A stretch of 64,000 bases of DNA from an uncultured Chloroflexia bacterium (GCA_963783335.1 CAWAND010000010.1:1397990-1461989), one strand, 5' to 3'. Counted from the first letter of the stretch, positions 5,986 through 62,780 are shown. Translations and numbers: made by a program. The notes: generated by a model from the sequence alone, not told the origin.

Positions 5986-8485
5986 TTATGGGCTCAGCGA
6001 AAGGTGGTCCGGTGCGGCTGATTCCACGGCCGACTTGGACCATGCGAAAGGCAGATACTTGATCTGCCGCCAGGCGTCCGTCTGATCGATGTAGTGAGGA
6101 CTGAAGGCATGGCCAGATTCGCCCGTGGTATGGATCCACAAGGCGTTGTCCCAGTTGGACAAGTCGTTAATGATGCGCATCGAAGGCAGGGAGGACACGT
6201 CGAATCCCTTGTCCACTTTCCAGGCCGTTGCGTTGACGATGGACGTGCCGCCGTTGACGGCGTACGGGCCCCGAATTCAATAACAACTCGATGGGGCCGA
6301 CCCCCGACTCGCCCAAACTCTGGTTTCTGAAGGTGGCGGTGTGAAGCTCGCCCCAGGTCCATCTTGAAGGATCTGATCCCATGATGGTTCTTCCTTGGTC
6401 GATGGCCTGCGAGAAAGCTGAGCGCAGGATGTCATCTCGCGTTTCGACGGGGTCGGTTGTGTGATCATCCCACCACGGACTGTTCGGCGCGGAAAGCAAC
6501 GTAGTGAAGACAGCGAAGGCGCGTGATCCGTCGGGGAGCGGGCCGTCGGGCAGCTCATCCGAAAAGGTTGAGAGAATCAATTGGCGCCAGAACAGATTGA
6601 ACACCGCCGCCTGGCTTGAGCCGAGTGTGTCCTGCTGGTCCCAATTCTTGAGGTTGTCCAATGCCCGACTGATGACCGGATCGTCAAAATGCAGCTTTGA
6701 CAAATAGGGAACAGCTATCGCCGCCCCAGGATCGAGATCGTCACCCTGGATGGCTTGAATGTCTTGCAGGGAGAGCTTGGGCTTGGCCTCAATCATCTGG
6801 ACGATGCGGGCGGCGCGGTATCCATAGTCCCAATCCCGGCTGATGAAATCAGGATATTGGCTGCCGACAACGGCATTGTTTGCGGTCGCGATGTAATCGT
6901 CACTTGGGTTGAAAGCCGACGGCAGTTGGTCGAAGGGGATCATGCCCGTCCAGTCGTAGTCCGTCGTCCAGCCTGGTGAGGGGAGCCAACCATCGCCGGC
7001 TGCGCGGATGGGCACTTTGCCCGGCATCTGGTAGCCGATGTTGCCTTGGGTGTCGGCGTAAACGAAGTTCTGGGAAGGAACGGCGAAATCTCTAAGGGCG
7101 TTGCGGAAGTCATCCCAATTCGAGGCGCGATCGTATTCCAGCACCGCCGCGAACACTCTAGAAGGCTGGAGCGCTGTCCATTGAAGCGATAAGGCGTAAG
7201 GTTCCGGCAGGTCAATTCCGGCATTGTCGGTGAAGTTCTCCAACTTGGCATAGGTGGTGCTCACAATCGGGCCGTGACGTGTGTAGCGGACCGTGAGGTC
7301 AACATCCTTTCCGCCTGCCACACGAACTGTCTCATGCACGATCTTCATATCCTGCCACTGCCCGTTGAATTCGTATTGGTCCGGATTGTCCGGATTGATC
7401 TTTTCAATGAAGAGATCCTGAACATCCGGGCCGACATTGGTCAGTCCCCAGGCGATATGATCGTTGTGCCCGATGATCACTCCGGGCGCACCGGCGAATG
7501 AGAATCCTCCAACTTCGTAGCGGCAGCTGGGGCTGAGGGTAAGGCAGTGTAGGCCGATTTGGTACCAGATCGAAGGCATCTGAATACCGAGATGGGGGTC
7601 GTTGGCCAGGATGGGCTGCCCCGATTGTGTTCGCTGACCGCCAACTACCCAGTTGTTTGATCCAATCCCGGGAAGGCCACCTCCCAGGAGCGTGTTGAGG
7701 CGGGATACCTTGCCGGAGAGAGACCTTAGAGCTGGTTCGGATTGCAGGATAGCGCTCATGCTTGCGCTTGGGATTTGAGCGCCGGCTGGCCCATAGTCCT
7801 TGACGATGACGGGGTGGTTGGGAGGGTAGGCCGGGTAAAGCTGGTTCAATTGCGCGGGCGAAAGGGTCTTCAAGAGCTGGGCCCGCTCGATCTCACCGTC
7901 CATGTTCCCGCCCAGGTCCCAGGCCATAGCCTTGGCCCAAGTCAAGGTGTTAATGGGGGCCCACGGGGCCGGTTGGTAGCTGGGGCTGAGCAGCTTCAAG
8001 ATCCCGTACTCGACCGAGAGCGCGGTGCCCGTGTGATCGGCCAGATAGGCGTTCACGCCGTCGGCATACGCCTGAAGTATCGTCAGCGTGTCAGGGTCCA
8101 TCTGCTCCAATTCTTGCTGTGCCACACGTTCCCACCCCATGGTCCGGATGAACTTGTCGGTGTCGACTTGCGAAGCGCCGAACATTTCGGCCAGGCGGCC
8201 GGCACCGACGTGGCGCCAGAAATCCATCTGCCAAAAGCGATCTTGGGCCGTGACGTAGCCTTGTGCCATGAAGAGATCGTGTTCGTCGGAGGCGTAGATG
8301 TTGGGAATGCCGGATGCGTCGCGGTAGACATCGACCTGTTCATGCAAGCCCGGCACGGTCAGGTTTCCCTGCACGATGGGCATCGACCGCTGGACGGCCA
8401 TCCATCCAAGCCCTCCCAAAATGATCGCCAAGATGACGATGACCGACAGCCCACCAAGCAGCCAACGACGTGTTCGTTCAGGCAT
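5986..8485 (-). pseudogene. Penicillin/AHL acylase (Ntn hydrolase) family, broken by a frameshift at 6271-6279
   Basis: ORF 6167..8557 carries a TM/signal segment (MPERTRRWLLGGLSVIVILAIILGG from ATG 8485, GGAGG 5 nt upstream) and the beta-chain nucleophile GSNNWVVGG. Its tail degenerates (SGPVRRQRRHVHRQ). ORF 5986..6216 encodes the family C-terminus (FDVSSLPSMRIINDLSNWD..TGESGHAFSPHY). Coding strand is TTG AAT TCG GGG. Removing one T gives LN RGPYAVNGGTSIVNATAWKVDKGF. Confidence 0.85.
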
Positions 8486-8741
8486 CAAAGCCTCCAAATC
8501 TTGGGGAAGAGTACGAGTTCTAGCATCAGGACGGCGGCTTGTCAATTCGGAGGGCAAGTCCAGCCGTTTTGAGGCCGAAAATTCGGCCTCGTGCCGGTTG
8601 TCGAAAATAGAACAAATGGGCTGAAATAGGCTTGTTCAAAGGGCGAAATCGGGCCCGCCGCGGTATAATTAGGAGGTTAAGAATCTGGCCCCCCGACCGG
8701 GGCAAATTTGGTCCCGAAATCACCCGAAAGAACAGGCATTC

Positions 8742-11369
8742 ATGGAAATTGGAACCGTTCGACAAGTCGACATCGACGAACAGATGCGGGGTGCCTATCT
8801 CGATTACGCGATGAGCGTGATCGTCTCGCGGGCCATCCCCGATGCGTCGGACGGCTTAAAGCCCGTACAGCGCCGAATCTTGTATGCGATGCACGATATG
8901 GGCATCCGGGCGAACTCCTCCTATAGGAAATCGGCCCGCATTGTCGGCGATGTGCTGGGCAAGTTCCACCCTCACGGCGATTCGGCCATCTATGATGCCA
9001 TGGCCCGGATGGCGCAGGACTTCTCGATGCGCTATCCGCTGGTCGACGGTCAGGGCAATTTCGGCTCGATTGATGGCAATTCACCGGCGGCCATGCGGTA
9101 CACCGAGGCGCGTCTGGCTCGAATCGCAGAAGAACTCCTGGTAGATATCGACAAGAACACGGTAGATTTTTCCGACAACTTCGATGGCTCCCTCCAGGAG
9201 CCGAATATCCTGCCGGCTCAGCTCCCCAATCTGCTCCTGAATGGCGCATCTGGCATCGCTGTGGGCATGGCGACCAATATTCCACCCCACAATCTTCGGG
9301 AGCTGGCCCAAGCGATCAACTTCATGATCGAGCGCGATGACGATCAAGACTCGGTCACCGTCGAGGATTTGATGCAGTTTGTCACCGGCCCTGATTTTCC
9401 CACCGGCGGCATGATTGTCGGGATCGAAGGGGTCAAGCAGGCGTACAGCACGGGCCGGGGCAGGATTGTGATGCGGGCAGTGGCGCACATCGAGGAGATG
9501 GCGGGCAATCGCTTCAAGATCGTCATCACCGAGATCCCGTACCAGGTCAACAAGGCCGGTCTGATCGAGCGGATCGCCCAACTTGTACGCGATGGCCGGC
9601 TGGACGAGATCTCCGACCTACGGGATGAATCCGATCGCCGGGGCATGAGCGTGGTGGTGGAACTCAAGCGCGGCGCTCAACCGAAGAAGGTCCTCAATCA
9701 GCTCTTCAAATACACTGCCCTTCAAAGCACGTTTGGGGTTCAACTCCTGGCTCTGGTCGATGGGGAACCTCGGCTTCTGACGCTGAAGAAGTCACTCCAG
9801 ATTTACATCACCCATCGGCAGAGGGTCATCACGCGGCGCTCGGAGTACGAACTGGAGAAGGCGCGTGCGCGCGGCCACATCCTGGAAGGCTTGCTGATTG
9901 CCCTGGCTAATCTGGACGCCGTGATCAAGACCATTCGGCAATCCGAAGATGCTGACGTCGCCAAAGAGAACTTGATGAACAAGTTCAAGCTTTCCGAGCC
10001 CCAGGCTCAGGCCATCCTTGACATGCAGCTCCGCCGTCTGGCGGCGCTCGAGCGCGAAAAGATTGAGAACGAACACAAGGACATTGTCAAACAGATCAAA
10101 TATCTGGAAGACCTGCTGGCGCACCCCAAGAAGATGCTCAAGCTCGTCAAGGAAGAGCTCGATCAGGCGGTCGAAAAGTACGGCGACGAACGGCGAACTC
10201 GGATCGCACCCGACGCAAGCGAGGAATTCAACGAGGAGGATCTTGTCGCGGACGAAGCCGTGCTGGTCAGCGTGACCGAGCGGGGCTACGTCAAGCGGGT
10301 GGCCGCCTCGACCTATCGGCGCCAAGGGCGGGGTGGACGCGGCTTGATAGGACATACGATGCGCGATGAGGACGAAGTGGTCATGCTCGTTCCGGCGCGG
10401 TCGTTGGACACCATGTTGTTCTTCTCCGACAAGGGGAAGGTGTACTCGGAGCGCGTCTATCAAATCCCGGACGCGGACCGAACAGCTCGCGGCATTCCGA
10501 TGGTGAATATCCTGAGCATGGATGCGGACGAAACCATCACCGCCATCACCGTGGTTGCGGACTTTGATGAGGCCAGTTTCTGTACTCTGGCCACACGAAA
10601 AGGCAAGATCAAGCGCGTGGCGCTGTCTGAGTTTTCGTCCGTGCGGCCGTCGGGGCTGATTGCTATGAACCTTGCCAAGGGGGACACGCTGGGGTGGGCA
10701 CGGCTGACCAGCGGCAAGGACGACATCATCCTTGTGACCGCCAATGGCCAGGCGCTTCGCTATCACGAGAAGAACGTGCGTGCCATGGGCCGGCCGGCAG
10801 CGGGCGTGAAATCAATTGGTCTGCGCAAGGGGGATTATGTGGCTTCAATGGATGTTGTGGACAAGAAGGCGGATCTGCTTGTCGTCACCGAGAATGGGTT
10901 TAGCAAGCGCACGCCTCTCTCCGAATATCCAACCAAGGGGCGCGGCACGTATGGTGTTCTGACCCTCAGCCGGGACAAAATCAAGCAGACCGGCAAGGTT
11001 GTGGCGGCGCGGGTTGTCGAAATCGATGATGATTTGAGCATCATCTCCTCCGGCGGCATCATCTTGCGCACCAAGGTTCGCACCATCAGCCAGACGGGGC
11101 GGGCGACGATGGGTGTGCATGCCATCGACCTGAAGAAGGGTGAGACGGTAGCCGGCGTGGCCAGGATCTCGGCTCGGGAACTCGAACAAGCCGGGGTGCA
11201 AGAAGGGGCCGAATCAGGGGACGCCAAGCAAGGCCAGGCCGCCGCGTCAGGGGATGGGGAAGATGAAGGGGGCAAAGCCAAAGGCATAGGAAAGCCAGCT
11301 GCCAAGAAGAAGGCGGCAGCCAAGAAGAACAAGCCGGCCAAGAAACCCCGCTCGGGTAAAGAGAGCTGA
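8742..11369 (+). CDS. gyrA: DNA gyrase subunit A
   Basis: 875 aa. [28 protein letters not shown], active-site [10 protein letters not shown], six-bladed CTD, then a Lys/Ala/Pro-rich basic tail. Confidence 0.97.
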
Positions 11370-15057: not shown

Positions 15058-15471
15058 GGCGATAGACCAGATCCATCTTGCGTCTGCCAGCCATCCACCT
15101 GAGACCCTGAAAGACACCAGTTTGGCACAGCCTACCCGACAGGGTGGTCATCTTGGGCTGGTCGCCCGGAGGGGCGCCAGAAGAAACCTGCCCGGTCTCC
15201 TTTGATTCTCGCCCGGTGCACGCCGGGGTTGAACATATCCGCCCCATCCAGACCAGCGGACGGACGGCATGCCGCGCCTGGAACAAGCCTTCAATTCCAG
15301 GTGAGCCCAGCCGGCATGATCCAAGCCGAGCCGATCAGACAACGCGGCAGGGCCAGGGACCATGGAGCAGCTGGATGATTGGTGGGCGCGTGAAACGCGA
15401 CAATCAGGCCCCGAAGGCTGTAGTTAACGGCAGGGGACGCTGGACGAGCGAACGATCGCAAGGAGGTTCTG

Positions 15472-18902: not shown

Positions 18903-20928
18903 ATGCCGCTAAAAGTCGGCGAAATGCTGAGGCAACGCTACCGCATCGAAGAAACCCTCGGCCAGGGGGGCATGGGCGCTGTCTACCGTGCCACCGATGT
19001 CAACCTGGGAGTGCAGGTCGCCGTCAAAGAAAACCTCTTCACCACCGAAGAGTACGCCCGCCAATTCCGACGCGAAGCTACTATCCTGGCCAGCCTACGC
19101 CACAGCGCCCTGCCACGCGTGACGGATCACTTCGTCATCGAAGGCGAAGGCCAGTACCTGGTGATGGACTTCATCGAGGGGGAAGACCTGCGGGAACGGC
19201 TCGAACGCGACGGGCCGGTTCAAGAGGACATGGCCATCCGCTGGTTTGTTGAGGTCTGCGACGCGTTGGCCTATCTGCATACGCGCACACCTCCCATCGT
19301 CCACCGCGACATCAAACCAGGAAACATCAAGATCACACCCGACGATCACGCCGTGCTGGTTGACTTCGGTTTGGCCAAGGTGCTTGAGGAAAGTGGAAGC
19401 ACAACGACCGGAGCCAAGGCGATGACACCGGGCTTCTCACCGCCCGAGCAGTACGGAGCAGGTCGGACGGATCCGCGCACCGATATCTATGCCCTGGCTG
19501 CCACACTGTACACTGCGTTGACGGCTTCCATTCCGGAGGATTCTCTCGAACGGGCCATGGGGCGAGCGAGCCTCACCCCAATTCGTCGGCGGAACCCCAA
19601 GGTCTCATCAGCTCTGTCGCGGGCGATCGAACGGGCGCTGGCGTTGGAGCCGGATGAACGCTTCCAGACCATGAGCGAATTTGCTGCGGCTTTAGCAGCC
19701 AGTGGTTCGGCGACCAGTCCGGCCAACACCAAGGGTTATCCCTATCTGGAACGGACGGTGGTTCCGGCTGCCAAGACTGTGGTGGGGTCGTCCCCGGTGC
19801 CGGCGTTCAAGCCGAGAACCGAAAACCGCCGGTGGCCGATCTACGGTCTCGTGATGGTGACGGTGGTCACCATCGCCGCCGGAGCTATCTACGCGCTGCC
19901 CGGCCTTGGCCGTGGTCGCAATGGTCCGCCGGCGACCAGCAGCGGGGTGGTGGCCACACAAGTCGGCCAGTCACCTGATGGGACGCCGGCGGCCACGCAG
20001 TCCGGGGGGGGCGGTTCCCCCACTTCGACGGTCGTAGATGTGGTTCAGCCGACACGCGTGTCGGCTCCGACGCCGACCCCACCCGGTGGGGGCATAGGTC
20101 AGTTGGCGTTTGCATCCAATCGCGATGGGCTGCCCCAGGTCTATGTAATGAACATCGACGGCACGGGAGTGCACAAAGTCACCGACCTTTCGGATGGTGC
20201 CTGCCAGCCGGCCTGGTCGCCGGACGGCCAAAAGCTGGCGTTCACATCTCCCTGTCGGTCCAATCGGAGCCTGTATCCGGGCTCGAGCGTCTGGATCATC
20301 AACGCGGATGGCAGCGGGCTGAGGGCTCTCGCCTCCGCACCGGGCGGTGATTTCGATCCGTCCTGGTCGCCGATCGGCGACAAAGTCGCCTTCACCTCGC
20401 TGGAAGACGGACACCCACAGATTTACGTGATGAATGTGGATGGCAAGGACCGCACCAATCTGAGCAACAACCGCGCCAGTGACAGCGACCCAAGCTGGTC
20501 CCCGTCGGGGAGCCAGATCATCTTCACCTCCATCCGCAACAAGGTGGCGGAGGTATGGATTATGCCGGCTGATGGGGGGGATGCTGCCCGCTTCTCGCGC
20601 AGCGGAGGGCGAGAGGATTCCCAACCCAGCTGGTCGCCAGATGGCAAGTACGTTGCATTTGATCAAGTTGTCGGAGGCGTATCGCGCCTGGTGGCAATGC
20701 AGTACAAAGAGGGCGACTTGCCCGAGTTCGCGCATATGCCCTGAGGGGCCGCTCTCGGTTCAGCCAATGGCCGAGCCGGCTTGGTCCCCCGACGGGCAGT
20801 GGCTGGCGTTTGAAACGTGGCCAACTGGTGTCGATCACGAGATCGCGCTGGTCACGTCAAGTTGTGCCAACTACACCGAACTGACATCGCACACCGGGCT
20901 CAACTTTGACGCAGCGTGGCGGCCCTGA
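18903..20928 (+). pseudogene. Ser/Thr protein kinase - TM - PD40 beta-propeller fusion, last blade displaced by a frameshift near 20724-20730
   Basis: Hanks kinase motifs (GQGGMGAVY, VAVK, HRDIKPGNI, DFGLAK, TPGFSPPE), one TM (WPIYGLVMVTVVTIAAGAIYAL), then repeated WSPDG blades. ORF ends ..DLPEFAHMP*. The +1 frame (tail of ORF 20479..20928) continues RICPEGPLSVQPMAEPAWSPDGQWLAFETW..AAWRP. Confidence 0.85.
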
Positions 20929-25171: not shown

Positions 25172-25172
25172 C

Positions 25173-30453: not shown

Positions 30454-31944
30454 ATGAAAGTCGAATTGCGAGATATCCATAAGTCCTTCGGGCCGGTCCA
30501 TGCCAATGATGGGATCACCCTGGATATCCCAGCGGGGACAATCCAGGGCCTGCTTGGAGAAAACGGCGCTGGAAAGAGCACCTTAATGAAGTCTCTTTCC
30601 GGCTTCATGGAACCGGACAGCGGGCAGATCTTGCTGGACGGGAAGCCGGTCAGCATGAAATCTCCTGCCGACGCCATCGCCCACGGCGTCGGCATGCTTC
30701 ACCAGGATCCTCTTGATTTTCCTCCTATGCGGGTGATCGACAATTTCCTCATCGGGGGTGATCCGTCACTGTTGCCGAAGCGTGGCAAGGCGCGTCGAGC
30801 GCTCCGTGAACTGGGAAATCAGTTTGGTTTCTCGCTGGATCCAAATGCCTACGTGGACACCTTGACCGTCGGCGAACGGCAGCAGCTTGAAATCCTGCGC
30901 CTTCTTTGGCTCGGGGTTCGGGCGATGATCCTCGACGAGCCGACGACCGGGATCAGTGCACCTCAGCGTGAAAAGCTGTTCAAGACTCTCAAGCGCCTGG
31001 CGGAAGAAGGCCGAACGATCATTTTCGTCTCCCACAAGTTGGAAGAGGTTGAGGATCTCTGCCACCGTGTGGCCGTCTTGCGCGAGGGGCGGCTTGTAGG
31101 CGAGGCGGAGGCGCCGTACACAACTTCCAAATTGGTGGGCATGATGTTTGGCAAAGAGGTCGCCCTGATCCCACGCACGCCGAGCTACGGCGAGACACCG
31201 GTACTGCAACTTCAGGGGGTATCTATCGAAGACCCGCGGCTGAGTATTGAGGATGTCAATCTGGACGTCCGCGAAGGGGAAGTGATCGGCCTAGCGGGCA
31301 TGGAGGGGAGCGGTCAGCGACTGTTCCTGCAAACTTGTGCCGGGCTTGTGCGCCCGGTCGCCGGTAGGATCTTGCTGGACGGCGATGACATGGCCGGGCG
31401 GCACTACCATGACTTCAAATCGAAGGGCTGTGCCTTTATGCCGGCCTCGCGTTTGGAAGAGGGCCTGATCCCCGGCATGACCCTCACTGAGCACTTCATT
31501 TTGACGCGCCCCGCCAAGGGGCTCTTTGTCAACTGGGAGAAGGGGCGCGCCAGCGCGCGGGAAGGGATAGCGGAATTCTCGGTGCGAGGTGAACCGTATT
31601 CGACGGTTAAGTCGCTGTCGGGAGGCAATCAGCAGCGTGCCCTGCTTGCTTTGTTGACATCGAACCTCCGATTGCTGCTGATGGAGCAGCCGACTCGCGG
31701 GCTGGACATGGAGTCGGCGATCTTCACCTGGGAGAAGCTGAAGGAGCGCTGTCAGGAGGGAACGGCTGTGGTGTTTGTGTCATCCGATCTAGAAGAGCTC
31801 CTGCACTACAGTGACCGGGTGCTGGTATTTTTCGCGGGCAAGGTCTCTCAGCCCCTCGAATCTCGGGATGTCAGCGTCGAGCGTTTGGGGGAGCTCATTG
31901 GAGGCATAGGGCTGGACCAGCCCAATGGGGCGCATGATGAATAA
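30454..31944 (+). CDS. ABC transporter ATP-binding protein (duplicated ATPase, CUT2/nucleoside type)
   Basis: 496 aa. Walker A GENGAGKST, signature LTVGERQQLEI, Walker B MILDEPT, and a degenerate second cassette (LSGGNQQR, LLLMEQPTRGLD). Confidence 0.9.
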   Translation: MKVELRDIHKSFGPVHANDGITLDIPAGTIQGLLGENGAGKSTLMKSLSGFMEPDSGQILLDGKPVSMKSPADAIAHGVGMLHQDPLDFPPMRVIDNFLIGGDPSLLPKRGKARRALRELGNQFGFSLDPNAYVDTLTVGERQQLEILRLLWLGVRAMILDEPTTGISAPQREKLFKTLKRLAEEGRTIIFVSHKLEEVEDLCHRVAVLREGRLVGEAEAPYTTSKLVGMMFGKEVALIPRTPSYGETPVLQLQGVSIEDPRLSIEDVNLDVREGEVIGLAGMEGSGQRLFLQTCAGLVRPVAGRILLDGDDMAGRHYHDFKSKGCAFMPASRLEEGLIPGMTLTEHFILTRPAKGLFVNWEKGRASAREGIAEFSVRGEPYSTVKSLSGGNQQRALLALLTSNLRLLLMEQPTRGLDMESAIFTWEKLKERCQEGTAVVFVSSDLEELLHYSDRVLVFFAGKVSQPLESRDVSVERLGELIGGIGLDQPNGAHDE

Positions 31945-32995
31945 TCAAAGTTCACGCTGGTTTGACCTTAGCTTCAGATTTGGGGCTGTCATCCTGGCCT
32001 TTGTGTTTACTGTGGCAGTTCTCATCTTTTCCGGAGCCCCTCCGCTCGAGGCGTTTGGCCAACTGGCACTTGGTGCGTTTGGGTCGGTTGAGAACTTCGC
32101 CAACGTGATGGTCGCCTGGGTGCCTCTGCTCCTGGCAACAGCCGGGCTGCTGGTGACATTCGCCGCCGGGCTTTGGAACATCGGCATGGAGGGCCAGATC
32201 ACGCTGGGGGCCATTTTCGCCACGGGGGTGCTGCGCATGATGCAAGACAGCGGCCTCCCCCCGATGGTTATGATCTTGGTCGCCATCTTGGCGGGTGCGA
32301 TCGGAGGCGCGCTGTGGGCTGGCCTTGCCGGTGCTTTGAAAACATTCGGTGGCGTGAATGAAATCTTCGGCGGGCTTGGCCTCGACTTCGTCGCCACGGC
32401 CATCACCCTGTGGCTGATTTTCGGGCCATGGAAGCGGCCGGGGATCGGCTCGATGAGCGGCACGGTGCCGTTCCCGCGAGAGATGTGGATGCCGATGCTG
32501 CCCCATCTGCGCTTGAGCCTGTGGGCATTGATCATCGGCATCTTGGGAACGATCGCCGTCTATTTCCTCTTGCAGGGCACCTACTTTGGACTCCGCCTCA
32601 AAGCGGTCGGCCGTAACAGACGAGCGGCCAATCTGGCGGGCATCCCAACCTCTACATACATGATGAACGCGTTCCTGATTTGCGGTCTGTTCGCGGGTGT
32701 GGCGGGAGCAATTCAGGTGACTTCCGTCTATCATCGGCTGATCCCATCGATTTCGAGCAACTATGGATGGTTGGGGCTGTTGGTGGCCATGCTGATCAAT
32801 TACCAGCCTGTGTGGGCGGCACCGGTGTCCTTATTCTTCGCCGCGCTCAACATTGGGAGCATCCAGCTTCCCATTGTCCTCAAACTGGACTCTTCCCTGT
32901 CTGGCGTTCTTCAGGGCGCCCTGGTGCTCGCGTTTCTGATGATGGAAGGCGCCCGGCGCAAACTTACCAGAGGGCAAGGGGAGACGCAGTCATGA
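31925..32995 (+). CDS. ABC transporter permease 1
   Basis: 356 aa, about 9 TM helices, overlaps the ATPase stop. Alternative in-frame ATGs at 31934 and 31937. Confidence 0.85.
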   Translation: MGRMMNNQSSRWFDLSFRFGAVILAFVFTVAVLIFSGAPPLEAFGQLALGAFGSVENFANVMVAWVPLLLATAGLLVTFAAGLWNIGMEGQITLGAIFATGVLRMMQDSGLPPMVMILVAILAGAIGGALWAGLAGALKTFGGVNEIFGGLGLDFVATAITLWLIFGPWKRPGIGSMSGTVPFPREMWMPMLPHLRLSLWALIIGILGTIAVYFLLQGTYFGLRLKAVGRNRRAANLAGIPTSTYMMNAFLICGLFAGVAGAIQVTSVYHRLIPSISSNYGWLGLLVAMLINYQPVWAAPVSLFFAALNIGSIQLPIVLKLDSSLSGVLQGALVLAFLMMEGARRKLTRGQGETQS

Positions 32996-33998: not shown

Positions 33999-35267
33999 AT
34001 GGCTTTTGAAGCTGGTTACCGCTGCTCAGAATGCGGCCGAGAGTACTCATTTGCTGAACCGATATACACCTGCCCCGAGGACGGGGCTAATCTGGACATT
34101 GTGTTCGACTATCAGGCGCTGGGTCATTCCACGACCCCGGCTTCAATCGGAGAGTCTGCTGAGGCCTCCATCTGGCGCTATCTGCCTCTGCTGCCCGTCT
34201 CCGCTCCGGGTCATTTCGGGACCGCGCTGCGTGCCGTCGGTATGACCCCGCTTTTGGGACCGCCGGCGCTTCGGCAAGCCCTCGACCTGCCCGACCTATG
34301 GGTCAAGGATGATGGCCGCAACCCCACGGCTTCGTTCAAGGATCGTGCCAGTGCTGTAGTGGTGCGCAGGGCGGAGGAAATCAAGGCGTCGATCGTAGTG
34401 ACCGCCTCGACGGGCAACGCTGGTGCTGCACTGGCGGGGATGGGGGCGGCGGCTGGCATGCCGACCGTCATCCTGGCGCCAAAGACGGCCCCGCGAGCTA
34501 AGGTCGCCCAGCTGCTGATGTTCGGCGCCCGGGTCATCTTGGTGGACGGCACCTACGATGATGCCTTCGATCTCTCCGTTCAGGCGTCAAACACCTTCGG
34601 CTGGTACTGCCGCAATACTGGCTACAATCCATTCACGGCCGAGGGAAAGAAGACGGCCGCCTTCGAGATCTGCGAGCAGCTCGGTCGAGCCTCCAACTCG
34701 TCCAGCCGAGCAACCTGGAAGGCGCCCGACGTGGTGTTTGTCTCTGTGGGGGATGGCAACATCATCAGTGGGCTGCACAAGGGCTTTGTGGATTTGCTTG
34801 CCCTTGGGTGGATTTCAAAGGTCCCCCGACTGATTGGGGTTCAGGCGAAAGGCTCATCGGCCATCTACAATGCATTCGCCAGCGGATCGGACAAGATTCA
34901 ACCGGTGAAAGCAGATACCTTGGCCGACAGCATCTCTGTCGATTTGCCGCGAGACGGGCAGCGTGCGTTGCGCGCCGCTCGCCAGTCCGGCGGGGCCTAT
35001 GTCCAGGTCGAAGATGACGACATCCTGGCCGCCATGCGCCAACTGGGACGCCAGGCGGCTGTCTTCGCTGAGCCCGCCGGCGCCACGGCCCAGGCCGGGC
35101 TGCTCCAGGCGCTGGACGCCGGACTGGTCACGCCGGAGGAGCAGATTGTCGTGATGGTCACGGGCAGTGGCCTGAAGGATGTGGACGCTGCCATGCAGGC
35201 CACCGGCGAGGCGCAGGTGATCGAACCCAACCTTGATGCCCTGTCGGAGGTGGTGGAGCGCTCATGA
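33999..35267 (+). CDS. Threonine-synthase-like fold-type-II PLP enzyme with N-terminal Cys-rich ribbon
   Basis: ATG 33999 inside tracked ORF 33669..35267, 8 nt after the permease stop. YRCSECGREY..TCPEDG, PLP lysine in NPTASFKDRAS, GNAGAALA, glycine loop VSVGDGNI. Confidence 0.7.
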   Translation: MAFEAGYRCSECGREYSFAEPIYTCPEDGANLDIVFDYQALGHSTTPASIGESAEASIWRYLPLLPVSAPGHFGTALRAVGMTPLLGPPALRQALDLPDLWVKDDGRNPTASFKDRASAVVVRRAEEIKASIVVTASTGNAGAALAGMGAAAGMPTVILAPKTAPRAKVAQLLMFGARVILVDGTYDDAFDLSVQASNTFGWYCRNTGYNPFTAEGKKTAAFEICEQLGRASNSSSRATWKAPDVVFVSVGDGNIISGLHKGFVDLLALGWISKVPRLIGVQAKGSSAIYNAFASGSDKIQPVKADTLADSISVDLPRDGQRALRAARQSGGAYVQVEDDDILAAMRQLGRQAAVFAEPAGATAQAGLLQALDAGLVTPEEQIVVMVTGSGLKDVDAAMQATGEAQVIEPNLDALSEVVERS

Positions 35268-35283: not shown

Positions 35284-36252
35284 ATGATTGATCAGAGAAG
35301 TACGACCTTCTCGATCATCGCTCCTGTCTTCAATGAAGCCAACTCGGTGGACACACTCCATCAGAGGGTTGAGGCCGTAATGGAGGGGTTGGGTGAGCCA
35401 TGGGAGCTTCTATTGGTGGACGATGGGTCGCGCGACGGCTCCCGGGAGCGGATTCTCCAACTCGCCCAGGAAGATCGCCACGTGCGTCCGATCATCTTCT
35501 CGCGCAACTTCGGCCACCAGATCGCCGTGACAGCCGGACTTGACTACAGTCTCGGTGAGGCGGTCGTGATCATCGATGCAGACCTCCAGGATCCGCCCGA
35601 GGTGATTCCGGAGCTGGTCGAAAAATGGCGTGAGGGGTTTGAGGTTGTCTACGCCGTCCGCGCCGAACGCAAGGGCGAGACGTGGTTCAAACGTGCAACG
35701 GCTTCGTTGTTCTACCGCCTGATCTACCGGATCACCGACGTCGAGATACCTGTGGACACGGGCGACTTTCGCCTGATCGACCGCAAGGTGGTCGATGCGC
35801 TGAAGCAAATGAAGGAACGCCATCGGTTTCTCCGGGGCATGGCGGCGTGGGTTGGCTTTCGTCAAATCGGCGTCCCGTACACGCGCCAGGCCCGCACGGC
35901 GGGCGAGACCAAATACACTCTTGGTAAGATGGTCCGCTTCGCATTGAACGCCGTCACCGGCTTTTCGTACTTCCCTCTGCAAATTGCCACCTACCTGGGT
36001 TTCGTCAGCGCAGGAATCAGCGCCGTCGCAATTCCAGTGGTGATCGTCCTGCGCCTGATGGGCAATCAGGCCTTCTTCGGACAGGCCTCAACGCTGCTGG
36101 CGGTGCTTTTCCTGGGCGGAGTTCAACTGATCTCCCTCGGTATTCTCGGTGAATACATCGGTCGCCTGTACGACGAAGCCAAGGGGCGGCCGCTCTACAT
36201 CATCAGCCACGGGCCCGAAAACGGGCCACAAAATCCCATATCACAGGAGTAG
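35284..36252 (+). CDS. Family-2 glycosyltransferase (polyprenyl-phosphate glycosyltransferase type) with two C-terminal TM helices
   Basis: FSIIAPVFNEANS..LLVDDGSRDGS..VIIDADLQDPPE (DxD) ..FRLIDRKV. ATG 35284 inside tracked ORF 35233..36252. Confidence 0.8.
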   Translation: MIDQRSTTFSIIAPVFNEANSVDTLHQRVEAVMEGLGEPWELLLVDDGSRDGSRERILQLAQEDRHVRPIIFSRNFGHQIAVTAGLDYSLGEAVVIIDADLQDPPEVIPELVEKWREGFEVVYAVRAERKGETWFKRATASLFYRLIYRITDVEIPVDTGDFRLIDRKVVDALKQMKERHRFLRGMAAWVGFRQIGVPYTRQARTAGETKYTLGKMVRFALNAVTGFSYFPLQIATYLGFVSAGISAVAIPVVIVLRLMGNQAFFGQASTLLAVLFLGGVQLISLGILGEYIGRLYDEAKGRPLYIISHGPENGPQNPISQE

Positions 36253-36259
36253 TACTCGA

Positions 36260-37721
36260 ATGATCGACCTCACCATTGACAAAGCACGACGCGAGCATGC
36301 CATCCAGCGGGCGAAAGAGCGCGGCATTCGCGTTCCTACGTTCGCTCAGATGAAAGACCCCTCGCTGGTGCCAGACGACATCAAGGAACAGCTCGGAAGT
36401 ATTGGGCTTTGGGATGTCGACCCGCGCAATCTCTTTCGCATCACCTGGAAGAACGAACCGGTGGAGAAAGGCGGTGGCTACGGCGGCGTCAACTACATGG
36501 AGCTTCCAACCAGCCTGACCGGCGTGGAAGCCAGGATCATTGCCCTGGTTGGAAAGTGGTTCCCAACCGGCGCTCATAAGGTCGGGGCGGCCTTCGGCTG
36601 CCTGGTCCCCAGACTGGTCACTGGCCAGTTCGATCCGACCACCCAGAAGGCCGTCTGGCCCTCGACAGGCAACTACTGCCGGGGCGGCGCCTACGACTCG
36701 GCCCTCCTGGCGACGGAGTTGATCGCCATCCTTCCCGAGGGGATGAGCAAGGAGCGCTTCGAGTGGCTGGCCAACATCGCCGGGGAAACGATCAAGACAC
36801 CCGGGAGTGAGTTCGAACGTCAAGGAAATCTTTGATAAGTGCAAGGAACTGCGAGCCTCGGGCCAGGATCTGATGATATTCAATCAGTTCGAGGAATTCG
36901 GGAACTACCTATGGCACTATGAAGTGACAGGCCATGCCATGCAGGATGTCTTGGAGCGCGAGCTGGGAGGCAAGGGCAACTACCGGGGTGTGGTCCTTAC
37001 GACGGGCTCGGCCGGGACCATCGCATGCGGAGACTATCTGAAGCAGGTCTTTCCGACCAGCAAGGTCGCCGCTGGGGAAGCCTGGCAGTGCCCGACTCTG
37101 CTTGAGAATGGCTTCGGCGCACATCGCATTGAGGGAATCGGGGACAAGCACGTGCCCTGGATCCACAATGTTAAGAACACCGACCTGATCGTCGACATCG
37201 ACGATGCCACCGTGGTCAATCTGGCCCGCCTATTCAATGAGCCAGTTGGGCGTGCCTATCTGGCAGGGGAAGGCGTGACCGAAGATTTGGTTTCACAACT
37301 CGGGCTGCTGGGTTTCTCCGGTATTGCCAATCTGACCATGGCGATCAAGTTCGCCAAGTATTATGAGCTGGGTCCCGATGACGTCGTGCTGACGGTTCTG
37401 ACGGACTCGATGGATCTCTACCAAAGTCGGTTGAAGGAAATGCACGCCGAGATCGGCGAGTTCAAGGAACGCGATGCAGCCGCGGTTCATGGCCAGTATC
37501 TGGCCGGAATTACCACCGACCACATGCAAGAACTGCGCTACCCAGACCGTAGGCGGGTGCACAACCTCAAGTACTACACATGGGTTGAACAGCAAAGTCG
37601 AACTTTCGAAGAGATCACCGATCAGTGGTACACACCGGACTACTGGAAGGGTTTCCAGGGGCAGGTGGACGCGATCGACGAACTCATCGAAGCCTTCAAT
37701 GCTGACGTTGAGGCCGCCTGA
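36260..37721 (+). pseudogene. Cysteine-synthase-like fold-type-II PLP enzyme (long form), split by a frameshift at 36808-36814
   Basis: N-part MIDLTIDKARREH..GKWFPTGAHKVGAAFG (PLP Lys)..TPGSEFERQGNL*. The +1 frame continues SNVKEIFDKCKEL..LTTGSAGTIA..HRIEGIGDKH... Coding strand is GGG AGT GAG TTC GAA. Removing one T gives GSE SNVKEIF. Confidence 0.75.
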
Positions 37722-38419: not shown

Positions 38420-38493
38420 CGCGTGTATCATTGCCATGATTTTGAGGCGCAACGCCTCGAGATCTCGTCAACTCAAAGGATGTGAGGCCCTCT

Positions 38494-52239: not shown

Positions 52240-53681
52240 ATCTGTGGGACCGCTACCTCACCCCAACCAGCCTGGATGAGGCGATCCAGGCCCTTCACGA
52301 TAACCAGGGTAACGCCCGAATCGTTGCCGGCGCGACCGATTTGATTTTGGAGCTCGAACGCGGCCAGCGCCCGAACGTGACCACGTTGATTGACATCACC
52401 CGGATCCCGGGACTGGACATGATCCGGCAGGATGATGGCGTGGTCCACATGGGTCCGCTGGTGACACACAATCACTGTGCGACATCTTCCTTGATCGTTG
52501 ACCGAGCCTACGTACTTGCTCGAGCTTGTTGGGAAGTTGGGGCGCCCCAGATCCGCAACCGGGGTACCGTGGCTGGCAATCTGATCACTGCCTCTCCGGC
52601 CAACGACTCCATTCCAGCATTGATGGCCCTCGGCGCCCAGGTTCTCCTGCGTTCATATGAGGCTGAACGCCTCGTCCCCCTGGCAGACTTTTATGAAGGG
52701 GTGCGGAAGACCGTGATGCGGCCGGATGAGATGCTGGTGGACATTTCGTTCTCCCTGCCCGGCTCAAACTCCCGCAGCACCTTCCTCAAGCTCGGATTGC
52801 GTCGGGCGCAGGCCATCTCAATTGTCAATACCGCCGTTGTGCTCGAGATGAACGGTCAGATCGTTGATCGGGCGAGCATAACCCTGGGCTCTGTCGCCCC
52901 GACGATCGTAAATGCCGAAGCGGCTGAAGCCTCGCTCAGCGGCGTTTCGCTAACTCCGGAAACCATCGAACGGGCCGCCATAGCCGCCCAGTATGCTGCC
53001 CATCCGATTGACGACGTGCGCGGAAGCAGCGCCTATCGCGCGCAAATGGTCAAGACCATCGTCGGCCGTGCCCTTCGCAGCCTGGCAGCCGGAGACGAGC
53101 GTCAAGGCTACCCAGAACATCCGGTGACCCTGTGGGGTCCCGCCGAGTACCACTGGACCCGTGAGCTCGAAGCGGTTGAAGAGCATGATGCTCATCGGCC
53201 AATTCATACAACCATCAACGGCAAGCAGTATGTGTTCGACACTGGCCAGGGCAAGACGCTCCTGCGTCTCTTGCGTGAAGAAGGCGAGCTGATCGGCACC
53301 AAGGAAGGCTGCGCCGAGGGCGAATGTGGCGCATGCACCGTATTCTTGGACGGTATGGCGGTCATGGCATGCATGGTGCCCGCACCAAGGGCTCACGGGG
53401 CTGACATCATCACCGTTGAGGGTCTGGCCCACGGCGATCAGCTTCATCCCATTCAGCAGGCGTTTCTGGATCAAGGAGCGGTACAGTGCGGCTACTGTAC
53501 GCCGGGCTTTTTGATGTCGGGAGCGAAGCTCTTGGAGGAGCGCCAGCAACCGACTCGATGGGATATTCAGCAGTCGCTGACTGGAAATCTATGCCGTTGC
53601 ACCGGCTACTACAAGATTGTTGACGCCGTCGAACAGGCAGCCAGGGAAAGCGACCGATCGCTCCGATCGGCAGCTGACTAA
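52236..53681 (+). CDS. Xanthine-dehydrogenase-type hydroxylase, fused FAD-binding (CoxM-like) and 2x[2Fe-2S] (CoxS-like) subunit
   Basis: N-half RIVAGATDLILELERG..AGNLITASPANDS. C-half TINGKQY..GCAEGECGACTV..QCGYCTPGF..NLCRCTGY. Confidence 0.9.
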   Translation: MNLWDRYLTPTSLDEAIQALHDNQGNARIVAGATDLILELERGQRPNVTTLIDITRIPGLDMIRQDDGVVHMGPLVTHNHCATSSLIVDRAYVLARACWEVGAPQIRNRGTVAGNLITASPANDSIPALMALGAQVLLRSYEAERLVPLADFYEGVRKTVMRPDEMLVDISFSLPGSNSRSTFLKLGLRRAQAISIVNTAVVLEMNGQIVDRASITLGSVAPTIVNAEAAEASLSGVSLTPETIERAAIAAQYAAHPIDDVRGSSAYRAQMVKTIVGRALRSLAAGDERQGYPEHPVTLWGPAEYHWTRELEAVEEHDAHRPIHTTINGKQYVFDTGQGKTLLRLLREEGELIGTKEGCAEGECGACTVFLDGMAVMACMVPAPRAHGADIITVEGLAHGDQLHPIQQAFLDQGAVQCGYCTPGFLMSGAKLLEERQQPTRWDIQQSLTGNLCRCTGYYKIVDAVEQAARESDRSLRSAAD

Positions 53682-54129: not shown

Positions 54130-54135
54130 GCCGAT

Positions 54136-55884: not shown

Positions 55885-55899
55885 AATGAGGTCAGACGC

Positions 55900-58943: not shown

Positions 58944-60281
58944 GTGCTGCTGTCCAAAGCACTCCGAACCGCTGCCGGCACAACCATCTCCTTCACTGGA
59001 GCTGGCGGCAAGTCCGGCGCGCTGCGTAGACTGGCCGGAGAAACCTCGCCTGACATCCCTGTTCTGCTGACCACAACAACCCACCTTGGCCTCGACCAGG
59101 CCGATTTGGCCGCGTCGCACATTGTGCTGACCGGGCGGATTGATATGGACCGAGCACGAGAAGGGTTGGGGCACACCGGCAGCCTGCTCGTCACCGGCCC
59201 GCCCCTGGAAGACCGGTCCCGCTGGTCCTCGCCTGGCGAAGCCAACCTGATCCTGCTCCATGAGCTCGCCCAGCAGGCCGGGGCGGTGCTGGTGATTGAA
59301 GCTGACGGGGCGCGCGGTAAAAGCCTCAAGGCGCCGGCTGAACACGAGCCACTTGTGCCGAATTTCACAAATATACTTGTGCCCGTCGTGGGGGCGTCCG
59401 TCTTTGGACTCCCGCTTACGGCGGACTTTGTCCATCGGCCGGAGGTGGCCGCCCAGGTTCTAGGTGAGCCCTTGGGGGTGGACCTTACCCCCGGGCGTGT
59501 TGCCAGACTGGTTGGATCCTCGGATGGGGGCCTCAAAGGACGACCGGAGGGGGCCGAGCTGCGCGTTCTCATCTCTCAGGTGGATGAAGCGGGCCGCCGG
59601 GAGGCGGCTCTGGATTGCGCCGCGCAGCTGTTGTTGGCCTCGGATGTGAACTCGGTCATTCTTGCATCTCTGGCGGCCGCCGACCCGGTGGAACAGGTTG
59701 TCGGGCGGACGGCGGGCGTGATCCTGGCAGCCGGCGGCTCAAAACGCTTGGGACGTCCCAAGCTGCTCGAGAACTGGAAAGGGAAGCCGCTGGTTCGCTT
59801 TGCTGTGCAAGCCGCCCTTGCAGGGGGCCTGGCCCCGGTGGTCGTGGTGCTGGGTGACCACGCTCATGAGGTCAGCCGGGCGATCGATGATTTGCCGGTG
59901 CGCACTCTGGTCAATGATCAGTGGGAGATCGGGCAATCGTCGTCCATGCGCCTAGGGCTGGCCGCCGTCCGGGTCAAGGCGGAGGCTGCCATGTTCTTGC
60001 TGGCGGATATGCCGCTGGTCGAACCGAAGCTCATCCGTTCCATTGTCCGGACCCACTGGGCCAGTCTGGCGCCGATTGTCCTTCCACATGCGGAGGGGAA
60101 GCGGGGAAATCCGGTGCTTTTTGATCGATCGACCTTCGATGCCCTGGCGCAAGTCGAGGGGGACACGGGAGGCCGGGCCATTTTCAATCAATTCGAGACA
60201 CAGATTGTGGAAGCTGATGCTCGAGGGTTTTTCGATCTGGATACCCAACAGGACCTGAAGTGGCTGGAGGGCCAGTCATAA
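58944..60281 (+). CDS. Fusion of YqeC-like P-loop protein and MocA/YgfJ-like molybdenum-cofactor nucleotidyltransferase
   Basis: GTG directly after the previous stop. N-half TISFTGAGGKSGALRRLA..VLLTTTTHL (YqeC-type). C-half GVILAAGGSKRLGRPKLL..LLADMPLV (MobA-like NTP transferase). Confidence 0.65.
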   Translation: MLLSKALRTAAGTTISFTGAGGKSGALRRLAGETSPDIPVLLTTTTHLGLDQADLAASHIVLTGRIDMDRAREGLGHTGSLLVTGPPLEDRSRWSSPGEANLILLHELAQQAGAVLVIEADGARGKSLKAPAEHEPLVPNFTNILVPVVGASVFGLPLTADFVHRPEVAAQVLGEPLGVDLTPGRVARLVGSSDGGLKGRPEGAELRVLISQVDEAGRREAALDCAAQLLLASDVNSVILASLAAADPVEQVVGRTAGVILAAGGSKRLGRPKLLENWKGKPLVRFAVQAALAGGLAPVVVVLGDHAHEVSRAIDDLPVRTLVNDQWEIGQSSSMRLGLAAVRVKAEAAMFLLADMPLVEPKLIRSIVRTHWASLAPIVLPHAEGKRGNPVLFDRSTFDALAQVEGDTGGRAIFNQFETQIVEADARGFFDLDTQQDLKWLEGQS

Positions 60282-60797: not shown

Positions 60798-60976
60798 CGC
60801 GTGCATCAGAAAGTCACTCTCATGAGGCTGATTTCGATGGCGCAGAAGCCCAACGCGAATACGAATCCCCGGCGGCGGAAGGCGGGCACCCCCGCAGAGT
60901 AACCTCGTGGGTGATGACCCCTCCGCCGCCCGAACGCGACATCTCGGGCGGCGCCTTTTTTTGATCGGGAGGCAGC
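60798..60976 (+). promoter_or_regulatory. aspS 5' leader with mutually exclusive antiterminator/terminator (attenuator, possible divergent T-box)
   Basis: GGCGGCGGAAGG (about 60877-60889) can pair with CCTCCGCCGCC (60919-60929), which overlaps the 5' arm of the terminator. A GGGTGATGACC element lies where a T-box GGGUGGUACC would be. Confidence 0.5.
60924..60962 (+). terminator. Intrinsic terminator inside the aspS leader
   Basis: CGCCGCCCGA-ACGCGACATC-TCGGGCGGCG perfect 10-bp stem, then CCTTTTTTT. Ends 14 nt before the GGGAGG RBS/ATG of aspS. Confidence 0.8.
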
Positions 60977-62780
60977 ATGTACAAGTCCCAAAACTGCGGA
61001 GAACTCACTGCCGAACACGCCGGCGATCAAGTCGTCCTTGCAGGATGGGTTCACCGACGCCGGGATCACGGTGGCGTGACATTCCTTGACCTCAGGGACC
61101 GATCCGGCCTGGTTCAGGTGGTGGCAAATCCCGACCTCTCAGCCGAGGCGCATCGCCACGCCGAACAGGTCCGGCCGGAATGGGTGATTCAGGTCACGGG
61201 CAAGGTCCGCCGTCGGCCCGCGGGCAGCGAGAACCCCGACATGCCGACCGGGGAAGTTGAGGTCGAAGCGCAAGAGTTGAACATTCTCAACCCTGCCAAG
61301 ACGCCCCCATTCCCGATCAACGAAGAGACCGAGGTCGACGAAACCGTTCGTCTCAAGTACCGCTACCTTGACTTGCGGCGAGAGCGGCTTCAGCGGAACC
61401 TGGAACTTCGCCACCGGGTTATCAAGTACATCCGAGACGCGCTTGATGCCCGGGGTTTTTGGGAGGTTGAGACTCCAATTCTGTTCAAGACGACGCCCGA
61501 AGGGGCTCGCGACTATCTTGTGCCCTCCCGGCTCTATCCGGGCGAGTTTTACGCCCTGCCGCAGTCCCCGCAACAGCTCAAACAGCTGCTGATGGTGGCC
61601 GGGGTAGAGCGATACTTTCAAATCGCCCGCTGTTTTCGGGATGAGGATCAGCGCGGAGATCGCCAACCGGAGTTCACGCAGCTGGACATCGAAATGTCTT
61701 TTGTGCAGCGGGAAGATATTCTGGACTTGGTGGAGCCCATCTACACGTCACTGGTGGAAGAGCTTGTGCCGCACAAGCGCTTGCTGGCCTCGCCATGGCC
61801 CCGGTTGACGTACGCTGAGGCGATGAATCGGTTTGGGAAGGACAATCCCGACCTGCGTTTTGGTATGGAACTCATCGATCTGACCGACTTGGCCGAATCG
61901 AGCGGATTTCAAGTCTTCGAGAAGGCAGCCGCGAACGGTGGGCATGTGCGCTGCATCAACGCACGCGGCTGCGGCGGGTACAGTCGGCGCCAAATCGATG
62001 AGTTGACTGAGTATCTCGCGCCGTTTGGTGCCAAGGGGCTGGCCTACCTGGCTATCGACGAGCAGGGGAAGGAGCGCTCTTCCTTCGCAAAATTCCTCTC
62101 CGAAGACACCTTGCGCGAGCTGCGGGCTCGGACGGATCTCCAGCCAGGTGACCTGCTGCTGTGTGTTGCCGATCAACCGAAGATTGTGTTCGAATCCCTC
62201 GGGAGGCTGCGTGAGCACTTGGGAGACATGCTGGATCTACGGGATCCAGAGGTGCTGGCATTCTGCTGGGTGATCGATTTCCCGCTCATGACTTGGAACG
62301 GGGACGAGTTCCAGATGGGATCCCAGCCAGCACCAATTCACCATGCCTGTTGATGAGGACATTCCCCTGCTTGATTCAGATCCGGGCGCGGTGCGGGGCT
62401 CCCAGTACGATATGATTCTGAACGGCAATGAGGTGGCAGGAGGCAGCATCCGCATTCACGATCGCCAGCTCCAGGAGAAGATCTTTCCGTTGATTGGGCA
62501 GAAGCTGGAAACGGCGCGTGAGCTGTTCGGGCATATGTTGGAGGCCTTTGAGTACGGCGCGCCACCGCATGGCGGCATCGCCTCCGGCCTCGATCGTTTG
62601 GTCATGCTCCTGGCAGATGAACCAAACATCCGTCAGGTGATCGCCTTCCCCAAGAATCAGGCTGCCAGGGATGTGATGGCAGCCGCGCCCTCTCCAGCCA
62701 CCTCCGAACAACTGGACGAATTGCACCTGGAGGTCAACGCGCCGGACGACAACGCTGGTTCCATTGCCAACCCGAAATGA
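60977..62780 (+). pseudogene. aspS: Aspartate--tRNA ligase, split (60977..62353 / 62343..62780) by a frameshift at 62305-62312
   Basis: N-part [74 protein letters not shown]... The +1 frame continues [44 protein letters not shown]. Coding strand is GAC GAG TTC CAG ATG. Removing one T gives [15 protein letters not shown]. Confidence 0.92.

Follow-up and report, generated by a model that had tools for sequence, protein, structure and literature searches.

At four of the six gene-breaking frameshifts in the analysed DNA, GANTC has gained one T and reads GANTTC. We consider these four very probably to be errors in the consensus of an assembly built from long reads, most probably nanopore reads, with adenine methylation of GANTC as their likely cause. 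The window, meaning the whole 64,000-nt stretch from an uncultured Anaerolineales bacterium (Chloroflexota), carries a second and more frequent kind of change at the same motif: at 17 further GANTC sites the first G is replaced by A (G1 to A), or, in mirror image, the last C by T (C5 to T).

Frameshifts in the window and the same loci in other assemblies

The window was compared with 22 loci (L001 to L022) from other assemblies of its Anaerolineales species, which are 99.6-99.96% identical to it and together cover 56.7 kb. They were taken from NCBI MAG, JGI metagenome and Logan assemblies of at least 13 samples, and we presumed them, judging by their fragmentation, to be short-read assemblies. 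Only a single covering assembly was available at 15293, 19580, 20715-20727 and 31609-38442. L022 is a second assembly of the same strain (the Logan assembly of run ERR11523667). For the uncovered stretch 39968-44135, a metagenome scan returned only the relatives L103 and L104, in which no frameshifting indel was found; at 95-97% identity they are too distant to serve as truth for single bases.

Split Pfam domains and three-frame reading gave exactly six broken genes in the window, five with a +1 insertion and the sixth, near 1218-1226, with a 1-base deletion. The frameshifts are as follows, with the size of each true product.

6273..6278, minus strand: insertion error, GAATTC with extra base 6274, in the penicillin amidase (acylase) gene at 5994-8557 (832 aa); true sequence GAATC on the coding strand, GATTC on the plus strand
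20724..20729, plus strand: insertion error, GAGTTC with extra base 20727 (true GAGTC), in the gene for a Ser/Thr kinase with PD40 repeats at 18903-20928 (674 aa)
36809..36814, plus strand: insertion error, GAGTTC with extra base 36812 (true GAGTC), in the PLP-dependent enzyme gene at 36260-37721 (486 aa)
62306..62311, plus strand: insertion error, GAGTTC with extra base 62309 (true GAGTC), in aspS at 60977-62780 (AspRS, 600 aa)
1218..1226, minus strand: frameshift away from GANTC, in a 3-hydroxyacyl-CoA dehydrogenase gene (282 aa)
28480, plus strand: frameshift away from GANTC, extra G, in a carbamate-kinase-like gene (319 aa)

The four hexamers lie where the original prediction had placed them, and its claim of one extra T at each was borne out, as the aligned assemblies have GAATC or GAGTC at these sites and the genes there are whole. 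Indeed, all six broken genes are whole in every other assembly covering them. The extra base of the amidase gene, whose Pfam amidase domain is split in the window, was missing from all ten covering loci (L013-L022), and an intact 832-aa gene was called in L013-L020. Each of the next two genes was covered by one locus: L010 lacks the extra T of the kinase gene (also split according to Pfam) and has an intact 674-aa gene, and L011 lacks that of the PLP-dependent enzyme and has a 486-aa PALP gene. At the aspS site, GAGTC was found in all five covering loci (L001, L002, L003, L004 and L006), and a 600-aa AspRS was called in five loci. The probability that at least four of six indels fall by chance on the T of GANTC is 2e-9, or 1e-6 if any base of the 5-mer is allowed. 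The other GAGTTC hexamers had been taken to be genuine, and the remaining 19 indeed showed no indel difference from the other assemblies.

The two frameshifts away from GANTC differ in form. On the coding strand at 1218..1226 the other assemblies read TTTAACCCGGTACC and the window TTAACCCCGTACC, so that run lengths of T3 A2 C3 G2 appear as T2 A2 C4 G1; six loci disagree with the window, and the break, which splits the Pfam 3HCDH_N domain, was also seen by three-frame reading. At 28480 the other assemblies read CACGCGCAGGATG and the window CACGCGCGAGGATG, with L010 and L012 lacking the extra G, and the AA_kinase domain is split (Pfam).

Neither form of the aspS site, with or without the T, had an exact match in the GTDB representative genomes, among which the species is not included, and a protein scan found only relatives of at most 73% identity, on which the placement in Anaerolineales is based. 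Exact-protein look-ups gave no match for the N-terminal fragment of aspS, GyrA or a 452-aa amidohydrolase. For GyrA this is because of a GANTC-linked D113N error that is absent from the other assemblies; the aspS fragment that was queried has a frameshifted tail. Other window proteins were found by exact look-up on a contig of more than 1 Mb, which would fit a window derived from long reads.

Concentration of errors at GANTC

Of 70 differences between the window and the consensus of other assemblies, 23 fell within GANTC, where 1.18 were expected (P = 1.4e-23), and GANTC ranked first among all 136 XXNXX motifs for enrichment in window-specific differences. The near-variants GANTG and CANTC were not enriched. 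No significant excess of errors was observed in the window at GATC, CCWGG, CCGG, GCGC, GGTACC, CGCAG and others, nor at TTAA (1 of 23 sites) or GCWGC (1 of 231 sites). All but two of the 23 GANTC differences were of two kinds, 17 substitutions and 4 duplications of T4. The original prediction was thus right about the insertions and had overlooked the substitutions, which are listed here as read on the plus strand.

1026..1030: AACTC for GACTC; private to the window, 5 loci disagree
2997..3001: AACTC for GACTC; Ser to Leu in a HIT-family gene; private to the window, 7 loci disagree
6285..6289: AACTC for GACTC; Ser to Leu in the amidase gene; 10 loci disagree
6316..6320: AACTC for GACTC; synonymous; 10 loci disagree
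7214..7218: AATTC for GATTC; A common only to L022, G in 7 loci
8496..8500: AAATC for GAATC; A common only to L022, G in 7 loci
9078..9082: AATTC for GATTC; conserved GyrA GSIDGD to GSIDGN; 5 loci disagree
15293..15297: AATTC for GATTC; non-coding; one covering locus only
19580..19584: AATTC for GATTC; synonymous, kinase gene; one covering locus only
20715..20719: mirror GACTT for GACTC (C5 to T, that is, G1 to A on the minus strand); Ser to Leu; the kinase insertion follows 5 nt downstream
31609..31613: AAGTC for GAGTC; Glu to Lys in an ABC ATPase
32710..32714: AATTC for GATTC; synonymous
34695..34699: AACTC for GACTC; Asp to Asn in the first PALP enzyme
35341..35345: AACTC for GACTC; non-coding in the gene model used
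36716..36720: mirror GAGTT for GAGTC; Ser to Leu; the PLP-enzyme insertion follows 89 nt downstream
38438..38442: mirror GATTT for GATTC; non-coding; C also in L103, a more distant relative
52767..52771: AACTC for GACTC; Asp to Asn in a FAD-binding subunit; 6 loci disagree

Every one of the 17 is of the RA/TY type, with A in place of a G that precedes an A, or the mirror-image T in place of C, and errors occur on both strands. As had been predicted, only a subset of the motif is affected: 168 of 191 GANTC sites in the window are unaltered, and 21 (11%) carry one of the stereotyped errors. These errors depend on the sequence around them: 16 of 21 follow directly on a C, compared to a background of 36% (P = 3e-4), and in 17 of 21 the N is a pyrimidine when read on the error strand (P = 0.007). 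About 20% of CGAYTC strand-sites are in error, compared to about 2% elsewhere.

The four insertions and 15 of the 17 substitutions were absent from all other loci, and the remaining two substitutions were common only to L022. Over 4.7 kb, this second, error-prone assembly and the window disagree at only 12 positions, 11 of which are within GANTC sites, and L022 lacks the T insertion in the acylase gene. The GANTC errors in L022 are a set of their own, some of them on the opposite strand of sites that are also wrong in the window, as at 6285..6289. The GANTC substitutions comprised 8 non-synonymous and 5 synonymous changes, compared to 33 and 91 among all other SNPs (Fisher P = 0.02).

Origin of the errors and alternative explanations

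The most likely course of events begins with methylation by the organism of the GANTC adenine in both strands. On a strand reading 5'-(C)-G-A-Y-T-C-3', the base-caller would then be undecided between G and A at the position immediately preceding the modified A. If the wrong call prevailed, the consensus would read AANTC, or GANTT if the error came from the opposite strand (17 sites). If both were retained, it would read GAAYTC, or GARTTC as seen from the opposite strand, giving the "extra T" and the shift of frame (4 sites). We infer the nanopore platform, the m6A cause and this route to an insertion from the pattern of errors. Among the long ORFs of the 64-kb window, Pfam scans found no methyltransferase gene.

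Errors of a related type have been reported. Nanopore Kit 14 data contain "ambiguous positions", at which A is confused with G or C with T in the minimal motif RA/TY and which disappear after PCR (Lohde et al. 2024, PMC11610573), and by analogy the window errors match this methylation-induced class. As in the window, the confusions lie 5' of adenine, are purine-purine or pyrimidine-pyrimidine and are mirrored on the other strand; they affect a subset of motif occurrences, are absent from short-read assemblies and reach coding sequence. In contrast, one fifth of the events in the window are gene-breaking single-base insertions, and the motifs of that study could not be assigned to known methylation, whereas the motif here is a clean GANTC. 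GANTC is among the motifs found at nanopore assembly errors in agrobacteria (PMC12710330) and Brucella (PMC12392509), where, as here, it marks errors at only some of its occurrences. Those organisms are cultured Alphaproteobacteria with known CcrM and their errors are of SNP type, whereas the window is a metagenome contig of an uncultured Anaerolineales. Single-base insertion at a methylated motif is absent from these three accounts, which describe substitutions, and PMC10687267 and PMC11649196 hold nothing specific on such insertions.

Methylation of GANTC is also known in the phylum. In three Chloroflexi MAGs, 88-99% of GANTC sites carried m6A, and two of the MAGs contained orphan methyltransferase genes (Hiraoka et al. 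2019, PMC6329791). The Chloroflexi methylome described there comprises m6A at GANTC, m6A at TTAA and m4C at GCWGC, and the orphan GANTC methyltransferase, found outside Alphaproteobacteria, is closest to M.SstE37II. The window thus has both phylum and motif in common with that study, which used SMRT kinetics on freshwater lake genomes, whereas methylation is read here from an error footprint only.

The alternative that survives best, though we regard it as unlikely, is that the base-caller or polisher mishandles the CGAYTC k-mer itself, regardless of any modification. The strong dependence on the -1 base and on N, the restriction to 21 of 191 sites and the lack of a methyltransferase gene in the window would all suit such a sequence-intrinsic error. 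However, the errors are symmetric over both strands of a palindromic 5-mer, and GANTG and CANTC, with 4 of 5 bases in common, have no excess. The published cases also speak for modification, since RA/TY errors are tied to native rather than PCR-copied DNA (PMC11610573), GANTC errors came from CcrM-carrying organisms (PMC12710330, PMC12392509), and m6A at GANTC is documented in Chloroflexi (PMC6329791).

It is very improbable that the changes are real, that is, that a strain-specific mutation hotspot at GANTC, for instance under repair or restriction pressure on a methylated site, inactivated these genes. Such a hotspot would account for changes falling reproducibly at one motif and for the two G to A changes (7214 and 8496) common to the window and L022, but it would leave the strain without a working aspS and with a changed version of the conserved GyrA DGD motif. 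The substitutions lack the signature of purifying selection seen in the other SNPs, and the same strain, as assembled in L022, has no T insertion and shows other GANTC changes, sometimes on the opposite strand of the same site. Assemblies from at least 13 samples are free of the 4 insertions and of 15 of the 17 substitutions, the other two being common only to L022. None of the six frameshifts recurred in other assemblies in the manner of genuine pseudogenes or genome decay. The intact genes elsewhere, the enrichment of GANTC alone and the differing errors of L022 all agree with the original proposal, in which the base-caller or polisher adds a base at GANTC and the genes are not real pseudogenes.

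Ordinary homopolymer indels in neighbouring G/C runs (TTCGGGGCCC, GCCCGAG, CCCGGGAGTGAG, AACGGGGACGAG), with GANTTC as a coincidence, can be dismissed: trimming a G or C from a run of at least 3 within 0-6 nt would also restore each frame, and the window has other frameshifts away from GANTC, but base-level alignment showed the adjoining runs (GGGG, CCC, CCCGGG) to be identical across assemblies, including GGGGCCC beside 6273..6278 in all ten loci L013-L022 and GGGG at aspS in all five, so that the sole gap at the four sites is one T in GA(A/G)T-C.

Consequences for the record and for the lineage

Neither pseudogenes nor programmed frameshifts should be read into the breaks in the aspS, kinase, acylase and PLP-enzyme genes. 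The checkable 57 kb hold at least 21 predictably wrong positions, and a whole genome at such a rate would hold on the order of a thousand. Errors of this kind would raise the number of apparent pseudogenes, break up gene calls and introduce false amino-acid changes such as DGD to DGN in GyrA. They follow a simple rule, namely AANTC or GANTT where relatives have GANTC, and GAAYTC or GARTTC where the frame breaks; the record could therefore be corrected mechanically, or by polishing with the many short-read metagenomes in which the species occurs. As artefacts the GANTC errors are of minor biological interest, and their value lies in mending the record. The same motif-enrichment approach could also be used to correct public long-read MAG assemblies automatically.

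The pattern of errors nevertheless points to GANTC methylation in this lineage, and we believe it likely that the footprint indirectly reflects a G(m6A)NTC methylome carried by an uncultured Anaerolineales bacterium from sediment. If this is true, motif enrichment in the frameshifts and private SNPs of public long-read MAGs could reveal methylation without raw signal, and the GANTC methylation of Chloroflexi known from lake genomes would be extended to sediment Anaerolineales.

Six frameshifted genes and their counterparts in other assemblies

By comparing all long ORFs of the window with Pfam and translating the junctions in three frames, we found exactly six frameshifted genes. Five of the six frameshifts are +1 insertions, and four of these five lie on GANTTC, so the original prediction that four of six breaks sit on this hexamer was correct, and all four of its hexamer positions match the window sequence. 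The probability that at least four of six indels fall on the T of GANTC by chance is P = 2e-9.

Frameshifted genes in the window (window coordinates)
~1218-1226, - strand: 3-hydroxyacyl-CoA dehydrogenase (3HCDH) gene; the sole 1-base deletion among the six
6273-6278: penicillin amidase (acylase) gene; +1 insertion, GAATTC
20724-20729: Ser/Thr kinase gene with PD40 repeats; +1 insertion, GAGTTC
28480: carbamate-kinase-like gene; +1 insertion, off GANTC
36809-36814: PLP-dependent enzyme gene; +1 insertion, GAGTTC
62306-62311: aspS; +1 insertion, GAGTTC

An exact-sequence look-up of three intact window proteins (DUF6909, a Bmp-family binding protein and an HD-GYP protein) retrieved 22 contigs from the NCBI MAG GCA_049588275.1, nine JGI metagenomes and four public runs assembled in Logan. 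With 99.6-99.96% identity to the window, these contigs jointly cover 56.7 kb of its length; judged from their fragmentation, these other assemblies are presumed to be short-read. All six genes are whole throughout this set, with products of 832 aa (amidase), 674 aa (kinase), 319 aa (carbamate-kinase-like), 486 aa (PLP enzyme), 600 aa (AspRS) and 282 aa (3HCDH). For the stretch 39968-44135, covered solely by relatives at 95-97% identity, no frameshifting indel was found against those relatives. One of them, the 97% identical L103, shows an in-frame 3-base difference (GGT) at window 40119, within GGC repeats close to the end of a DUF2207 membrane-protein gene. The same-species loci, apart from one described below, come from no fewer than 13 separate metagenome samples, among them JGI 3300036915/18/25/37, 3300043054/141/249, 3300031256 and 3300031367, and runs SRR11829268, SRR11827249 and SRR11828890. 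The species seems to form a widespread population with little divergence.

A G/C run lies 0-6 nt from each of the four GANTTC sites (TTCGGGGCCC, GCCCGAG, CCCGGGAGTGAG, AACGGGGACGAG), and dropping a G or C from the adjoining run restores the frame equally well at all four, so the extra base is not identifiable from the window sequence alone. Base-level alignment showed one gap per GANTTC site, a single T, which is missing from GAATC in 10 of 10 loci at the acylase site and from GAGTC in 1 of 1 (kinase), 1 of 1 (PLP enzyme) and 5 of 5 (aspS) loci. Since the neighbouring G/C runs are the same in the window and the other assemblies and only the T is gapped, a homopolymer indel is rejected and the proposed corrections to GAATC or GAGTC, found in the aligned loci at all four sites, are right. 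Outside genes, homopolymer lengths differ at window 8689 (G6 vs G5), 11464 (C4 vs C3), 15052 (A6 vs A7) and 38381 (A2 vs A3). The lengths at 8689 and 11464 are also variable in the other assemblies, and so could reflect genuine population variation instead of error.

Substitutions at GANTC and a same-strain assembly

Two comparisons were made, one of positions where the window differs from every other assembly and one of the window against their majority consensus. A further 17 GANTC sites are altered by one stereotyped change, in which the first G becomes A or, as its mirror, the last C becomes T.

Substituted GANTC sites (window coordinates)
AANTC (G to A): 1026, 2997, 6285, 6316, 7214, 8496, 9078, 15293, 19580, 31609, 32710, 34695, 35341, 52767
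GANTT (C to T): 20719, 36720, 38442

Of the 70 places where window and consensus differ, 23 lie within the 191 GANTC sites (1.18 expected; P = 1.4e-23), and GANTC ranks first for enrichment among all 136 XXNXX motifs. The same comparison gave no excess of differences at GANTG, CANTC, GATC, CCWGG, CCGG, GCGC, TTAA or GCWGC. The reading preferred in the original prediction, a systematic base-calling or polishing insertion at GANTC, is supported, and the affected sites grow from 4 to 21. GANTC substitutions comprise 8 non-synonymous and 5 synonymous changes, compared to 33 and 91 for other SNPs (Fisher P = 0.02). The substitution at 9078 turns the GyrA motif GNFGSIDGD into GNFGSIDGN; to our knowledge, the DGD altered here to DGN is conserved across GyrA.

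The Logan assembly of run ERR11523667 (L022) aligns to window 3982-8684. Over these 4.7 kb it disagrees with the window at just 12 positions, 11 of them in GANTC sites, so the two are the same strain. ERR11523667 is probably a long-read run, and possibly the window's own sample. Relative to the other assemblies, L022 has its own error set, with 10 of 12 differing positions falling in nine GANTC sites. The acylase T insertion is missing from L022, which has G to A at that same site instead; at 6285-6289 its error is on the strand opposite to the window's, and its acylase is split into 642 + 131 aa by the loss of two bases at GATTCTC (window 6570-6571). Disagreement between two same-strain consensus sequences that is almost confined to a single motif is a hallmark of ambiguous base calls.

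Frameshifts outside GANTC and other gene content

The 3HCDH and carbamate-kinase-like frameshifts are likewise absent from the other assemblies, and lie outside GANTC. The former is a run-length scramble (TTTAACCCGG to TTAACCCCG; on the coding strand, TTTAACCCGGTACC in the others and TTAACCCCGTACC in the window) overlapping TTAA, CCGG and GGTACC. TTAA is an m6A motif in the Chloroflexi studied in PMC6329791; with 1 of 23 TTAA sites affected in the window (P = 0.11), its involvement is only a lead. The latter is an extra G at 28480 (CGCGCAGG to CGCGCGAGG; CACGCGCAGGATG in the others, CACGCGCGAGGATG in the window), to which no motif could be assigned.

Other gene content of the window
21953-30384: probable block for the breakdown of purines or ureides; two amidohydrolases, adenine deaminase, GntR/UTRA regulator, two carbamoyltransferase paralogues, the broken carbamate-kinase-like gene, Bmp-type ABC transporter
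44272-49437, + strand: coenzyme F420 gene cluster; F420-dependent NADP oxidoreductase, F420 gamma-glutamyl ligase (CofE), PNPOx-like, nitroreductase-family gene, CofD, CofC, luciferase-like monooxygenase
51412-60281: xanthine-dehydrogenase-type molybdoenzyme cluster; XdhC, FAD/2Fe-2S subunit, MoCo-binding subunit, YqeC-MobA, DUF6909 protein (582 aa), and ORFs 53737-54129 and 58125-58943, both with no Pfam match

Origin of the errors and probable GANTC methylation

Were the four insertions real, they would knock out aspS plus three more conserved genes, each intact in every other assembly. Together with the non-synonymous skew and the differing errors of L022, the intact genes identify these changes as errors, not mutations. 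Rather than a genomic feature, the four frameshifts represent an assembly artefact belonging to a known class. A long-read origin of the window is suggested by a contig of more than 1 Mb with the same proteins.

Sequence context was scored on the strand showing the G to A change or the extra A. In 16 of 21 events a C precedes the site (background 36%; P = 3e-4), and 17 of 21 have a pyrimidine at N (P = 0.007). Errors affect about 20% of CGAYTC strand-sites, compared to about 2% of the remainder. In all four extra-T events N is a purine on the TT strand, and the insertions therefore read GA[A]YTC on the complementary strand. Both classes are most simply explained by one and the same fault, in which the call for the base immediately before the adenine of G-A-Y-T-C would be ambiguous between G and A. 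A consensus choosing A would give a substitution, while one retaining both the G and the A call would, we infer, give an insertion.

For nanopore data from Kit 14, Lohde et al. (2024) described "ambiguous positions" as A/G or C/T confusions, with RA/TY as the minimal motif common to species and only some positions affected; they mostly disappeared when PCR-copied DNA was sequenced (PMC11610573). The 17 substitutions of the window are exactly of this type. The motifs named for nanopore assembly errors of agrobacteria include GANTC (PMC12710330), and errors in CcrM-bearing Brucella were linked to this motif (PMC12392509). We found no description of the single-base insertion variant in this error literature (PMC11610573, PMC12710330, PMC12392509). 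By its AspRS relatives, the organism belongs to Anaerolineales in the Chloroflexota. In three Chloroflexi genomes, Hiraoka et al. (2019) reported m6A at 88-99% of GANTC sites, with an orphan methyltransferase nearest M.SstE37II in two of the three (PMC6329791).

The published GANTC errors, the RA/TY class and the m6A precedent in Chloroflexi make a GANTC methylome plausible in this lineage. Weakness of the base-caller for the k-mer itself, with methylation not involved, is by comparison an improbable explanation. A Pfam scan of long ORFs showed no methyltransferase gene in the 64-kb window. The practical value of these results lies in correcting the record, and their biological interest is low; for the lineage, the error pattern is an indirect pointer to GANTC methylation.
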